DNA from: Candidatus Korarchaeum cryptofilum OPF8 | Lineage (GTDB): Archaea > Korarchaeota > Korarchaeia > Korarchaeales > Korarchaeaceae | Assembly (NCBI RefSeq): GCF_000019605.1 | Contig: NC_010482.1 | Span: 930,001-962,000, forward strand | Direction: 5' to 3' | DNA: 32,000 nt | In this document: positions 16,552-19,956 of the stretch, in pieces | How the letters are laid out: every line of letters starts with the position of its first letter | Numbering within the stretch: the first letter of the stretch is position 1 | Translations under genes and position numbers: made by a program | The notes under the pieces: model-generated | Databases searched by the model: none | What the model saw: the letters and a program-made list of their open reading frames with translations, nothing else | What the model was told of the DNA's origin: nothing

Positions 16552-18468
16552 TTATCTCATATCTGGAGGGAGTAACTCCTTCCCGAATGTCCTGAAGAAA
16601 TCTTCCAAGCTCATGCTCCCCAGATTCCCCTTCCCCTTGACCCTAACTGAGATCTCGCCCGTCTTCATCTCCCTTTCCCCTATTATAGCGACTATAGGTA
16701 TTTTCTCCAGCTCGCTCTCCCTTATCCTGTAGCTGAGAGTAGATTCTGCCTTCCTAATATCCGCCCTGACCCCTCTAGCTGACATGAGAGCTAATAGTTC
16801 CTCAGCTCTCCCCTCCTGGGCTTGGGAGACTGGGAGTATCCTTAGCTGAATGGGGGCTATCCATAGGGGAAAGTTCCCAGCGTAATGCTCCAGGAGTATC
16901 CCGAAGAACCTCTCTATAGATCCCAATAGGGCTCTGTGTATCATCACGATGTGCTCCTCGCTACCGTCAGCTTTCACATACTTGAGATCGAATCTCCTGG
17001 GGAGGTTGAAGTCTATCTGTATCGTACTGAGCTGCCACTCCCTCCCTATTGAATCTACGAGCTTCATATCTATCTTTGGGCCGTAAAATGCCGCCTCCCC
17101 TTCCATTATCTCATATCTGTACCCCTTCCTCCTCAGAGCACCCTCTAAGGAGGATTGAGCTGCTGACCAGTCCTCATCGGAGCCCATGTACTCAGATCTC
17201 CTCCTAGGATCCCAAGTGGATATCTCCACCTTCAGCTCCTCGAAGCCGAAGGACCTCATTAAGTACTCATTGAGGTCTATGAGCCCTAAGACTTCATCCT
17301 CAAGATCCTCCCTAGTGGTGAATATGTGAGCATCGTCCTGAGTGAACCCCCTAGCCCTCAACAGGCCGTGAAGGACGCCCGACTTCTCGAACCTATAGAC
17401 AGTTCCGAGCTCGAATAGCCTGAGCGGGAGTTCCCTGTAGCTCCTCCTCTTCGAGTTGTAGATGAGTATGTGGAAGGGGCAGTTCATGGGCTTTACAGCA
17501 TGCTCTATCCCCTCCTTCTCGAAGACGTACATATAATCTCTGTAATAATTCAGGTGCCCCGAAATCTTCCAGAGGGTGCTGTAAGCTATATGCGGGGAGT
17601 AGACGAGCTCGTATCCCCTGCTCAGGTGGACCCTAACTAGGAAGTCCTCTATTATACGCCTGACCCTAGCTCCCTTGGGATGCCATAGGATGAGGCCTGG
17701 ACCTATTATCTCTGACGGCATGGAGAAGAGATCTAGCTGGGGCCCTACGACCCTATGATCCCTCTTCCTTATCTCCTCCCTCCTCACTAAGAATTCTTCC
17801 AGCATCTCCTTGGAGGGGAAGGATATCCCGTAGACTCTCTGCATCACCGGATTCCTCTCATCCCCCCTCCAGTAGGATGAGGAGACCTGAAGAAGCTTCA
17901 TATACTTCACATAACCGGTGGAAGGTAAGTGCGGACCTCTGCAGAGGTCGAAGAACTCCCCCTGCCTGTATATCGATACCACCGGCTCTTCTATCTCCTC
18001 CAGGAGCTCGACCTTATACGGCTCTCCAGCCTCCCTGAAGAGAGCTATGGCCTCCTCCCTCCTCATCTCCTCCCTCACTATCTCGATATCCTCCTCAACG
18101 ATCCTCCTCATCTCCTCCTCTATCAGCTCCAAGTCCTCCTGAGAGAAGGTCTTACCCCCCAGGTCGAACTCGTAGTAGAAGCCCTCCTCTATGGGAGGCC
18201 CTATCCCAAGCTTAGCCTCCTTAAAGAGCCTCTTGACAGCTTGAGCTAATATGTGAGATGTGGTGTGCCAGTAAGCCTCCCTTCCCTCCCTACTATTGAA
18301 GTCCAGAACTCTTATCTCGCCTAGATCATCACTTATCACAGTTGAGAGGTCCAGAAGTCTCCCTGATGCCTCTGCTATCAGTCCTATACCTCTAGGTATC
18401 ACATCTAAAATCCTCTTCCCCTCTTCAGCGTTCAAGGTAGTCCCATCGGGCATTATAACTTTAACCAA
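16552..18468 (-). CDS. thrS: threonyl-tRNA synthetase, full-length bacterial-type (TGS + N2 editing + class II core + anticodon-binding domain)
   Basis: The TGS-like start is VKVIMPDGTTL. The editing-site motifs are HTTSHILAQA (HxxxH) and DLCRGPHLP. The zinc site is KPMNCPFH. Class II motif 2 is YRFEKSGVLHGLLRARGFTQDDAHIF. It is 638 aa. The start is TTG 18468, preceded by GGGAGGTGT. Confidence 0.95.
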   Translation of the reverse strand: MVKVIMPDGTTLNAEEGKRILDVIPRGIGLIAEASGRLLDLSTVISDDLGEIRVLDFNSREGREAYWHTTSHILAQAVKRLFKEAKLGIGPPIEEGFYYEFDLGGKTFSQEDLELIEEEMRRIVEEDIEIVREEMRREEAIALFREAGEPYKVELLEEIEEPVVSIYRQGEFFDLCRGPHLPSTGYVKYMKLLQVSSSYWRGDERNPVMQRVYGISFPSKEMLEEFLVRREEIRKRDHRVVGPQLDLFSMPSEIIGPGLILWHPKGARVRRIIEDFLVRVHLSRGYELVYSPHIAYSTLWKISGHLNYYRDYMYVFEKEGIEHAVKPMNCPFHILIYNSKRRSYRELPLRLFELGTVYRFEKSGVLHGLLRARGFTQDDAHIFTTREDLEDEVLGLIDLNEYLMRSFGFEELKVEISTWDPRRRSEYMGSDEDWSAAQSSLEGALRRKGYRYEIMEGEAAFYGPKIDMKLVDSIGREWQLSTIQIDFNLPRRFDLKYVKADGSEEHIVMIHRALLGSIERFFGILLEHYAGNFPLWIAPIQLRILPVSQAQEGRAEELLALMSARGVRADIRKAESTLSYRIRESELEKIPIVAIIGEREMKTGEISVRVKGKGNLGSMSLEDFFRTFGKELLPPDMR

Positions 18469-18754
18469 AGGGGGACACCTCCCGAGCTCGGATGAATAGA
18501 GTCCTCGGGACTCAAGCAGCTAAGAAGTTTCTCGATCCCTCCTCAAGCTGCACACCTCCCTGAGGTTCATCCTCAGTATAAAAACTTTGCCGTGGGGAGT
18601 CGCTCAATAAATCGCGTCACAAGGGCTCGATAAGAATTCGCTCCCATTTCGATGAGGGGAGCGATCCTGGAAAGGTAATATCAGCTATGAACAGAGACCA
18701 TTCAAGGTCAGCGGGATACCTCACCTTTATTACCTCATCCTCTGTGAGAGATAG

Positions 18755-19339
18755 ATGCTTCCCATAGTGCTCGAGATGCGCGGGCCAGAGGGATGGACGG
18801 CCTCAATCATCAAGTTCGCTGAGGGACTGATGCTTCACTTCGGCAAGCGTTTGAAGAGAGTAATAGCTCTTCCTAGCCCGGATGATCAGGTTTACGATTC
18901 GAATGTGCTCGTGGTGATCGAGAAGCCCACGCTGGATGATGTGAAGATCGTTATGGAGATCGCTGTGAGAAGCGGAGAGAGGCTGAATCCATTAGTGGTG
19001 GATGAGGGGGATGAGGAAGCCGTTAGGATATTCATGAGCTCCTTCCAAATTCCTAAAGCCGATTGGAATTATGAGCACGTTAAGTTCGCTGAGGGACTGA
19101 TGCTTCACTTCGGCAAGCGTTTGAAGAGAGTAATAGCTCTTCCTAGCCCGGATGATCAGGTTTACGATTCGAATGTGCTCGTGGTGATCGAGAAGCCCAC
19201 GCTGGATGATGTGAAGATCGTTATGGAGATCGCTGTGAGAAGCGGAGAGAGGCTGAATCCATTAGTGGTGGATGAGGGGGATGAGGAAGCCGTTAGGATA
19301 TTCATGAGCTCGGGTGGGAGGGATGTCGAAGCTAGATAA
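18755..19339 (+). CDS. tandem-duplicated minimal-nucleotidyltransferase-like protein, putative partner of the downstream HEPN protein
   Basis: The 194-codon ORF contains the same 77-aa core twice. The core layout (helix, then RVIALPSPDDQVYDSNVLVVIEKP, then helices) resembles MNT/NTase-fold antitoxins. However, it has P-S in place of G-S and D-S-N in place of D-x-D/E. The 3' end overlaps the HEPN ORF. Confidence 0.5.
   Translation: MLPIVLEMRGPEGWTASIIKFAEGLMLHFGKRLKRVIALPSPDDQVYDSNVLVVIEKPTLDDVKIVMEIAVRSGERLNPLVVDEGDEEAVRIFMSSFQIPKADWNYEHVKFAEGLMLHFGKRLKRVIALPSPDDQVYDSNVLVVIEKPTLDDVKIVMEIAVRSGERLNPLVVDEGDEEAVRIFMSSGGRDVEAR
18812..19041 (+). repeat. direct repeat copy 1 (230 bp, identical to 19082-19311)
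   Basis: Base-by-base comparison of the two stretches shows no mismatch. The period is 270 bp (90 codons), so the repeat is in frame. Confidence 0.95.
19082..19311 (+). repeat. direct repeat copy 2 (230 bp, identical to 18812-19041)
   Basis: See copy 1. Identity ends abruptly at both borders. The 40-bp spacer (19042-19081) is unrelated to the 40 bp preceding copy 1. Confidence 0.95.
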
Positions 19340-19676
19340 AGCCGAGATACTGCTGAGGGAGGCCAAGGAGGATCTGAAGCACGAGTGCTATAATAAGGCT
19401 GTCTCCGCCTCATATTTCGCCGTTAGGCTCTTCGTTGAGAGTTTCTTACCGGGCTTGATGACGAGGAGGGATGATAAGATAGCTAACGCATTATTCAGGG
19501 AGATTGAGAGGAAAGTTGGGAGGGAAAAAGCCGAAGAGATCAAATCAAATTATCTCTTCCTTTTCGATCAGAGGAAGAAAGCTGATCACAGAGCAGATAT
19601 CTTCGGGAAGGAGGCGGAGGAGATCGTAGCTATGGCGGAGCGTTTGATGAGAGAAATAGAGGAAATCTTGAGATGA
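19314..19676 (+). CDS. HEPN domain protein (toxin-like partner of a HEPN/MNT-type module)
   Basis: About 117-120 aa and all-helical. The N-terminal LLREAKEDLKHECYNKAVSASYFAVRLFVESFL block is typical of HEPN. The R-x4-H motif is present as RKKADH. The start is GTG 19314 or ATG 19323, and either overlaps the end of the upstream ORF. Confidence 0.7.
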   Translation: MGGMSKLDKAEILLREAKEDLKHECYNKAVSASYFAVRLFVESFLPGLMTRRDDKIANALFREIERKVGREKAEEIKSNYLFLFDQRKKADHRADIFGKEAEEIVAMAERLMREIEEILR

Positions 19677-19924
19677 TGCTTAAGCGGGCATCTATCCGAA
19701 GATCCGCTAGCATATTTTTCAGCGAGATCTCATTGAGGGATTATGAGCTCCTTGAATTGATGAATCTCGCTTTTAAAGGATTCGTCCGTCCCCCTTTAAT
19801 AATTGAAGCGATTACTAGTTCATCTGAGAGTACCTCGAACTCTCCAGAGAAACGGCCTATCTTTTGTGTATACAGTTTCAGGGGCCTCAGCGGATCCCAG
19901 TACTTGAAAAGAACCAAAATTTAA
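19673..19924 (+). CDS. hypothetical 83-aa ORF; coding status uncertain
   Basis: Its ATG overlaps the HEPN stop in an ATGA arrangement, which suggests coupling. However, the product is Ser-rich and low in complexity, no family is recognised, and a 58-aa antisense ORF (19741-19917) competes for the same DNA. Confidence 0.25.
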   Translation: MMLKRASIRRSASIFFSEISLRDYELLELMNLAFKGFVRPPLIIEAITSSSESTSNSPEKRPIFCVYSFRGLSGSQYLKRTKI

Positions 19925-19956
19925 TATTTTTTCAACCTACTATATCAGGGGATCTC

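Follow-up and report, generated by a model that had tools for sequence, protein, structure and literature searches.

Two DNA-identical halves in an archaeal HEPN-partner gene, read as an old in-frame duplication kept uniform by recombination

We analyzed a 32,000-nucleotide (nt) stretch of Candidatus Korarchaeum cryptofilum OPF8 (NC_010482.1, positions 930,001 to 962,000; hereafter the window, with positions counted from its first letter). On its forward strand, a gene at 18755-19339 encodes a protein with two halves built on the same sequence, and the gene for a HEPN-domain protein follows it directly. Comparison with relatives shows, as far as sequences can, that this twin-domain gene arose from an old duplication and that its two cores have been kept identical by recurrent recombination since before the lineages carrying it split. 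We consider it likely that an ancient in-frame duplication, with cores evolving in concert through recombination, produced a non-catalytic, covalent pseudo-dimer of domains resembling minimal nucleotidyltransferase (MNT) proteins, which masks the HEPN partner.

Repeat structure and concerted evolution of the cores

Positions 18812-19041 and 19082-19311 are identical at 230 of 230 nt with a period of 270 nt, as found by a repeat search and by Tandem Repeats Finder (period 270, 1.9 copies, 100% matches, score 1000). A perfect match of this length cannot have arisen by chance in 32 kb, and blastn detected no third copy or donor in the window. Both copies lie in one frame of the 194-amino-acid (aa) open reading frame (ORF) at 18755-19339 (+ strand). 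Copy 1 (18812-19041, +) forms the core of domain 1 and copy 2 (19082-19311, +) the core of domain 2; the same 77-aa peptide is encoded twice, as K20-S96 and K110-S186, with final Ser codons that differ between the copies (TCC and TCG). Two of the surrounding segments have not been homogenized: an N-terminal segment, MLPIVLEMRGPEGWTASII (18755-18811, +), which holds strand beta0 and the start of helix alpha1, and a 40-nt linker, FQIPKADWNYEHV (19042-19081, +). The unique C-terminal tail, GGRDVEAR plus stop (19312-19339, +), overlaps the HEPN start codon. Compared at an offset of 270, the sequences upstream of the two copies match at 16 of 57 nt, and the nearest 40 nt match at 10 positions, which is the chance level; the sole feature aligned there is a TGG codon (Trp14 and Trp104). 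The original prediction had described the 230-bp identity, the 270-bp period, the doubled 77-aa core, the 40-bp linker, and unrelated 40-bp stretches ahead of the copies with only a Trp codon in line. All of these coordinates and sequence statements were correct.

A search of 5.8 billion proteins returned 13 relatives, eight of which have two-domain length (187-198 aa, 49-99% identity) and come from Candidatus Korarchaeum, Ca. Methanodesulfokora, and metagenome-assembled genomes (MAGs). Despite large differences between the proteins, the two halves of every two-domain relative are nearly identical. Comparing related genomes for one copy versus two had been suggested at the outset, and the eight diverged orthologues share the two-domain layout. 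DNA was fetched for eight lineages, in which the repeat spans 201-241 nt with a period of 261-270 nt. The copies differ at no position in the window, L022, L025, L014, L027, and L030, at one position in L026, at three in L013, and at 10 in L023/L024. When cores were aligned by codon, nucleotide identity was 94-100% within a gene versus 56-87% between these lineages; units are closer within a genome than between genomes, the signature of concerted evolution. The cores of the window and L022 differ at 30 of 231 sites, and because the copies within each genome are identical at 230 of 231, essentially all of these differences are present in both copies. The same holds at synonymous sites: synonymous divergence (dS) is 0 between the two copies of one gene versus 0.55 between the cores of the window and L022, and it exceeds 2 or is saturated for deeper pairs. 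The ratio of nonsynonymous to synonymous divergence (dN/dS) is ∼0.1, in the core and the HEPN gene alike. Among strains of the window's species, each assembly carries 3-6 synonymous single-nucleotide polymorphisms (SNPs) that are parallel in both copies, a parallelism to be read with the behavior of assemblers in mind.

A full HMMER scan of 1.84 billion representatives yielded 90 clusters at 50% identity; the HEPN-partner family is small. About 28 of these clusters are two-domain, and most family members are single-domain and look functional. The cores of distant two-domain members are also identical internally, and in DNA from five distant lineages (L032-L037) we found perfect or near-perfect repeats of 143-197 nt with periods of 255-288 nt. 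One of the five is a Sulfolobales MAG. A HEPN-like gene comes next in four of them, and the fifth lies on contigs too short for a neighbor. A Baldrarchaeota relative (P0022 cluster) was compared at the protein level only. Across 13 lineages, perfect repeats range from 143 to 241 nt, and the period (255-288 nt) is always a multiple of 3. What had been noticed in one genome is a long-lasting, family-wide pattern, not a peculiarity of that genome. In a group of two-domain clusters (P0031, P0035, P0039, P0060, P0067, P0071, and P0080), the halves are 47-61% identical, or identical over a short C-terminal part; those of P0060 are 74% identical, with only part aligning. These lineages appear to have escaped homogenization, or partly so. 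One candidate member, P0100 (1232 aa, seven stretches), was rejected as an unrelated coiled-coil false positive.

The segments outside the cores bear on the age of the duplication. Each 270-nt unit includes 40 non-identical nt, and the N-terminal segment of a gene shares 23-51% nucleotide identity with its own linker. Among orthologues the N-terminal segment is conserved (MLPIVLEM..W) and has the form ..W-[RTA]-x-x-[VI]-[ILM], versus ..W-x-x-E-[HD]-x for the linker. BLOSUM62 scores over nine residues were 19.6 among N-terminal segments, 18.7 among linkers, and 8.4 between the two types. On these comparisons, the two segments sort by position across genes, that is, they show positional orthology, and the linker reads as a diverged, shortened homologue of the N-terminal segment. 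In P0040 and P0043, the first alpha1 helices are mutually orthologous, as are the second ones, and the cores are identical only within each protein. Because the segments that escaped homogenization show positional orthology, the two-domain state predates the lineage splits, and the duplication is older than the divergence of the lineages.

Judged from the sequences, recurrent recombination between direct repeats is the only process that would fit these patterns, whether by gene conversion, by unequal crossing-over between genome copies, or by both. The tracts have stable edges: in four lineages with saturated dS, the copy-1 core runs from gene positions 55-58 to 284-288. On one side, the flanks, which include a 6-codon indel, may be too diverged for heteroduplex formation; on the other, the tail may be constrained by signals for HEPN initiation. 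Tail nucleotide identity between lineages is mostly 60-100% (range, 47-100%) versus 56-87% for the core, and the tail is generally the most conserved segment. In L037 the edge is graded, with partial identity ahead of the perfect tract, a pattern that old conversion tracts should show. The mosaic copies of L006, L013, L023, and L037 are only suggestive as traces of conversion.

The linker itself varies at one further point. In four of the eight lineages (P0004, P0005, P0007, and P0008) it carries a Met codon 3-6 residues before the Trp, where the window has Ile (ATT). An internal start giving a second-domain-only product is conceivable; the Met is not conserved.

Domain fold, HEPN partner, and proposed function

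Scans of the twin-domain protein and its unit with Pfam, NCBIfam, PADLOC, and PHROGs gave no meaningful match, and neither PF01909 nor PF18765 matched the window protein or 56 family members at E <= 1. Against PDB sequences, the unit profile found chance-level matches only (TpbA, E = 0.02-0.05) and the HEPN protein found nothing. The Joint Genome Institute (JGI) name of P0001, "intergrase/recombinase," attached to a protein 99% identical to the product of 18755-19336, has no support from domain searches. A single unit was modeled with AlphaFold2 (AF2) from a 20-sequence unit alignment, with a mean local confidence (pLDDT) of 90 and a global confidence (pTM) of 0.81; its elements run alpha1-beta1-loop-beta2-alpha2-beta3-alpha3. 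Foldseek matched this model in the PDB mainly to MNT antitoxins and Pol-beta nucleotidyltransferase domains (8xeh_E, 8xeo, 1no5, 6m6u, 7bxo, 5yep, 7ae9, AAD(9)/AadA, and 1wot). In the model of all 194 aa, pLDDT falls below 50 at residues 96-104. The whole-model search returned ribosomal-protein and gelsolin noise, with 2rff and 7bxo_E picked up locally, and is uninformative because the inter-domain geometry is uncertain. On the models and the lengths of its orthologues (187-198 aa), the gene would thus encode two MNT-like alpha/beta units, each of roughly 90 residues.

The catalytic signature defined for MntA is GSX10DXD (PMC11586414). The twin-domain family lacks it and has the register L-P-S-P-x5-Y-[D/E]-S-N, in which Pro replaces the Gly, the Ser varies in relatives, and an invariant Asn replaces the second Asp. 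An hhalign alignment places LPSP opposite GS and [D/E]SN opposite DxD, in agreement with manual mapping of the motif. Across 56 single-domain relatives, this Asn is the sole invariant residue, and the Trp at the start of alpha1 is >90% conserved. Together they suggest that the site was repurposed and did not simply decay. The likeness to MNT proteins, as modeled, is one of fold and context; the sequence comparisons do not establish family membership. The original prediction had proposed that the duplication, if real, fuses two copies of a putative antitoxin-like HEPN partner into one covalent pseudo-dimer; the predicted fold and the gene order support that reading, and sequence-family searches lend it no support.

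The downstream gene (19323-19676, +) encodes 117 aa from an ATG at 19323, with an alternative GTG at 19314, and is present in JGI gene calls. Its product matches PF05168 with 27.3 bits (cut-off, 22; E = 4.3e-6) over profile positions 5-116 of 117 and is a putative RNase toxin. The twin-domain gene, ending at 19339, overlaps the HEPN start at 19323, and its tail contains a G-rich, Shine-Dalgarno-like stretch (19312-19322); the tail may couple translation of the two genes. The catalytic Rx4H motif lies at 19572-19589 (+) as RKKADH and is intact as RK[KRYIM]ADH across all HEPN partners read. Type VII HepT toxins have the motif RX4HXY, whose Tyr is the residue that becomes AMPylated (PMC11586414). 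The HEPN partner here lacks this Tyr (H-R-A), and in the eight lineages the residue after H-x is A, P, D, or G, never Tyr. A HEPN gene lies 3' of every two-domain homologue examined, the L034/L035 contigs being too short to show the neighbor. Dyads of MNT and HEPN genes have the partner gene 5' and the HEPN gene 3' (PMC3710099), and this pair has the same layout, with overlapping genes, conserved wherever the contig is long enough.

In the model we propose, the two MNT-like domains of the twin-domain protein would form a covalent pseudo-dimer. By binding both equivalent protomers in the symmetric HEPN homodimer, it would mask their composite Rx4H site and would serve as a type II-like antitoxin or as a regulatory subunit. 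The HEPN protein would then be the toxin and would be neutralized by binding. Action of the twin-domain protein would be non-catalytic, because the GSX10DXD signature is lost and the HEPN protein has no Tyr to be AMPylated. The two halves may never diverge enough to stop recombining because both see the same HEPN surface, and with both contacting identical protomers, homogenization would be tolerated or even favored. Recombination tracts are bounded by the diverged N-terminal and linker segments on one side and by the tail with its HEPN signals on the other, and the same recombination would give rise to precise one-copy deletion alleles.

Several observations weigh against this proposal. The Foldseek matches have TM scores of ∼0.5 and probabilities up to 0.93, but E-values of 0.04-0.3; an hhalign comparison between the family and a small alignment of canonical MNT proteins gave a probability of 1%, which is not significant; and AF2 reached moderate confidence for the two-domain protein (pLDDT, 73.6; pTM, 0.60). 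In about 8 of the 28 two-domain clusters, the halves have diverged to 47-61% aa identity; function therefore does not require identical halves. Nor does dN/dS in either gene point to an arms race in which homogenization would be adaptive. Finally, all data are short-read metagenome assemblies, in which a perfect repeat longer than the k-mer is one de Bruijn node traversed twice and in which bubbles may be popped. Both the exact 100% identity and the parallelism of the SNPs may therefore be in part a product of the assembler, and a copy number above two is formally possible where copies are perfect. The pattern of at least 94% identity within versus 56-87% between lineages cannot be any assembler effect. 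An arms race driven by positive selection was also considered in its own right and rejected, at a gross level, on the dN/dS of ∼0.1.

A different function for the pair is unlikely but has evidence on its side. Instead of belonging to a toxin-antitoxin (TA) or defense system, the HEPN protein could be a housekeeping RNase whose regulatory or substrate-binding subunit is the twin-domain protein; alternatively, the twin-domain protein could be an active enzyme, its non-canonical site centered on the invariant Asn. PADLOC and PHROGs returned no match, the window locus sits between thrS and oxidoreductase genes outside a defense island, selection is purifying, and the family, with its invariant Asn and near-invariant Trp, appears to conserve a functional site. 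However, the module occurs in unrelated neighborhoods, sometimes beside other HEPN/MNT, MazE, or restriction-modification-type genes, and its patchy distribution with occasional decay (as in L010) is typical of mobile TA-like dyads; unrelated neighborhoods and decay are hallmarks of such a module. The order of partner gene 5' and overlapping HEPN gene 3' is also that of MNT-HEPN dyads (PMC3710099).

One-copy alleles and the reality of two copies

In at least four lineages, sibling strains carry one-copy alleles at the same locus, composed of the copy-1 N-terminus, a core, and the copy-2 tail. Relative to the two-copy locus of L022 (3001-3582), L016 (184-498; flanks 99% identical) and L008 (2353-2667; 98.5-99%) have one copy, as does L007 (4001-4315; flanks 91%), where a MEGAHIT k141 contig spans the locus. 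Other one-copy and two-copy pairs are P0012 versus P0007, P0017 versus P0003, and P0109 and P0106 versus P0105; in P0017, the copy-1 version of the ∼15-nt patch described below for L023/L024 is joined to a copy-2 tail. Recombination between direct repeats is expected to leave deletion products of this kind; alternatively, some one-copy versions could reflect assembler collapse.

The DNA identity of the halves might itself be selected, through symmetric coevolution with a homodimeric toxin, in which each change would reach both binding faces, or through an in-frame recombinational switch between bivalent and monovalent antitoxin that tunes HEPN release. We regard this extension as doubtful; if true, it would be an undescribed way of building recombination into a TA-like module. 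A full alternative built on the switch, in which in-frame recombination between two-domain and one-domain states alters antitoxin valency and HEPN control much as in phase variation and selection preserves the repeats as substrates for recombination, is still harder to sustain. The precise one-copy alleles in siblings of at least four lineages, the period that is always a multiple of 3, and the common, functional-looking single-domain members, which make activity of both states plausible, are in its favor. Yet once an allele is reduced to one copy, its linker is gone and cannot be rebuilt, so within a lineage the change would be one-way. In addition, the one-copy assemblies are possibly collapse artifacts, no three-copy form was seen in the representative scan, and ordinary recombination, acting on any direct repeat of 230 nt, accounts for these data with no need of selection for switching.

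The original prediction had offered three options: gene conversion between older domains, a very recent duplication, or an assembly artifact. The first is the one that stands; the other two are rejected, in part on the diverged two-domain orthologues. That the duplication is real is borne out at several levels. Eight independent contigs, drawn from different JGI samples, encode the identical 194-aa protein; we retrieved six of these contigs (L001-L006). In L013, a 99%-identical variant from another sample, the copies differ at three positions, one of them Met to Ile, and in L006 they differ at two; because L013 and L006 carry copy-specific SNPs, the assemblies were able to distinguish both copies. 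The 10 mismatches of L023 (2123-2617) and L024 (355-849), two independent assemblies, are clustered in ∼15 nt (KSA versus EHM). This patch is an unconverted island in an otherwise identical tract, and its position ∼105 nt from each boundary argues for exactly two copies. The relative P0105 sits on a 2.4-Mb contig. Nor could a one-copy locus yield the linker, a unique sequence placed after one core and before the other.

It is accordingly very improbable that the true locus has one copy and that an assembler looped the repeat node or merged strain variants. The 230-nt repeat does exceed typical k-mers, sibling assemblies do hold one-copy versions, and two contigs stop within the repeat core (L017 at 4182 and L011 at 4181), although such breaks are as expected at a genuine repeat longer than k. 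Against this, reads must contain both junctions of the unique linker, which is conserved as protein among diverged orthologues; two copies were assembled on each of the eight independent contigs from different samples; and, through the SNPs in L013 and L006 and the patch in L023/L024, each copy can be assigned to its own flank. In a weaker version, bubble popping erased a few true differences between copies, which is possible. The locus is in any case a trap for short-read MAG assembly and annotation, being alternately collapsed, broken, or resolved.

Least credible is a very recent, lineage-specific tandem duplication whose copies have had no time to diverge: the 0 mismatches in 230 nt and the recent origin of most homogenized protein repeats (Persi et al., PMC5120217) would fit it, but the same architecture and a homologous linker occur in orthologues down to 49% aa identity, copy number is constant at two across them, the 30 of 231 differences between the window and L022 are essentially all in both copies, and such an event would yield 2 × 270 identical nt, not 40 nt per unit at chance level.

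Relation to known systems and genomic setting

HEPN proteins act as dimers, and known MNT:HEPN complexes include 2:2 and 2:6 forms (PMC11586414). We compared the pair with type VII HepT/MntA systems from Shewanella (SO_3165/3166), Aphanizomenon flos-aquae, and Legionella (PDB 5yep, 6m6u, 7bxo, 7ae9, and 8xeh). As in these, a small alpha/beta partner is encoded 5' of an Rx4H-bearing HEPN protein in a two-gene dyad, and the predicted fold best matches MNT antitoxins. In contrast to them, the partner here is a covalent tandem with no NTP_transf_2 match and with LPSP...DSN in place of GSX10DXD, and the HEPN protein is of the PF05168 type with no HxY Tyr; neutralization therefore probably proceeds by binding rather than by nucleotidylation. 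Minimal nucleotidyltransferase-HEPN pairs are abundant in thermophilic archaea (PMC3710099). With HI0073/HI0074 and archaeal MNT-HEPN pairs (1no5, 1wot, and 2rff), the module shares ∼100-aa domains, the same predicted fold, and pairing with HEPN, but those partners are single-domain with intact catalytic carboxylates and have no reported duplication with DNA-identical halves. Fused MNT-HEPN proteins (PMC13000451) and two-HEPN pseudo-dimers (Cas13, RnlA, and Swt1) likewise set the stoichiometry of a HEPN module by covalent fusion. Those fusions are HEPN-MNT or HEPN-HEPN, whereas here the partner domain is duplicated and fused and the HEPN protein is separate.

Long-lasting concerted evolution in prokaryotes has been reported as rare and for separate genes only, 26 in number, through recurrent gene conversion that is favored for homomer- or complex-forming proteins (PMC6053082). 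Like tuf, mtrA, mtmBC, and archaeal histones, the cores are closer within than between genomes. Unlike those separate genes, the units here lie in one reading frame, 40 nt apart, with sharp tracts, and this gene of a mobile TA-like module is absent from the list of 26 (PMC6053082). True homogenization at constant repeat number has been reported for "only a few proteins" (Persi et al., PMC5120217). Literature searches for tandem or duplicated MNT domains, pseudo-dimeric HEPN antitoxins, and gene conversion in HEPN/MNT systems found no description of such an arrangement; its ingredients, a TA-like dyad and gene conversion, are already known. Surface proteins of the alpha C/Rib type in group B streptococci also contain long, in-frame repeats that are DNA-identical through recombination, with deletion variants in populations. 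Their repeats are variable and often high in copy number, form extracellular stalks, and are linked to antigenic variation. Here, by contrast, two copies are fixed in a cytoplasmic protein, and the repeating unit is a globular domain that matches a dimeric partner.

The module represents an uncharacterized family of HEPN partners with no Pfam model, found in thermophilic archaea including Korarchaeia, Sulfolobales, and Baldrarchaeota, and its MNT-like fold with a replaced catalytic signature points to non-enzymatic control of a HEPN RNase. Among the cases known or found, it is an unusually clean instance of intragenic concerted evolution, with two copies fixed, sharp and conserved edges, and the pattern repeated in at least 13 archaeal lineages; escaped lineages and one-copy deletion alleles provide internal controls. 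It may serve as a natural reporter of recombination or gene-conversion rates in uncultured hyperthermophilic archaea, and as a test case for whether binding to a symmetric homodimer permits or favors homogenization.

Upstream of the dyad, a TATA-like box read from the sequence (TTTATTA; 18726-18732, +) lies ∼26 nt 5' of the ATG and is a putative archaeal promoter, from which the transcript would be leaderless or have a short leader. In the window and L022, the dyad sits between thrS and a pair of CCG/Fe-S and FAD-oxidase genes. In other lineages, its neighbors are nitroreductase, serpin, Nre, acylphosphatase, a restriction-modification-like methylase, or a MazE-like gene. On L025, a canonical pair of HEPN (PF05168) and NTP_transf_2 (PF01909) genes at 1413-2178, in HEPN-then-MNT order, lies ∼140 nt downstream of the twin-domain/HEPN module; because of this second pair, HEPN modules are clustered on this small contig. 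A decayed copy of the module is present in L010 (3977-4520; the same as L020) from Ca. Methanodesulfokora KUA_Bin04. Its MLPIVMEM N-terminus is out of frame with the remaining single domain of linker type, and the downstream HEPN gene is cut to 76 aa, ending before the Rx4H motif.

Scans of the window for tRNA and Rfam families returned nothing. Between the HEPN gene and the CCG/4Fe-4S gene of the window is a gap of ∼280 nt (19677-19953), in which no gene was called in JGI contigs and no terminator or RNA family was detected; an 83-aa ORF at 19673-19924 has no family match. Within the minus-strand thrS gene (16552-18468), an imperfect repeat at 18052-18118 (15-nt period, 4.5 copies, 67% matches) encodes the Glu/Arg-rich stretch EEEMRRIVEEDIEIVREEMRREE.

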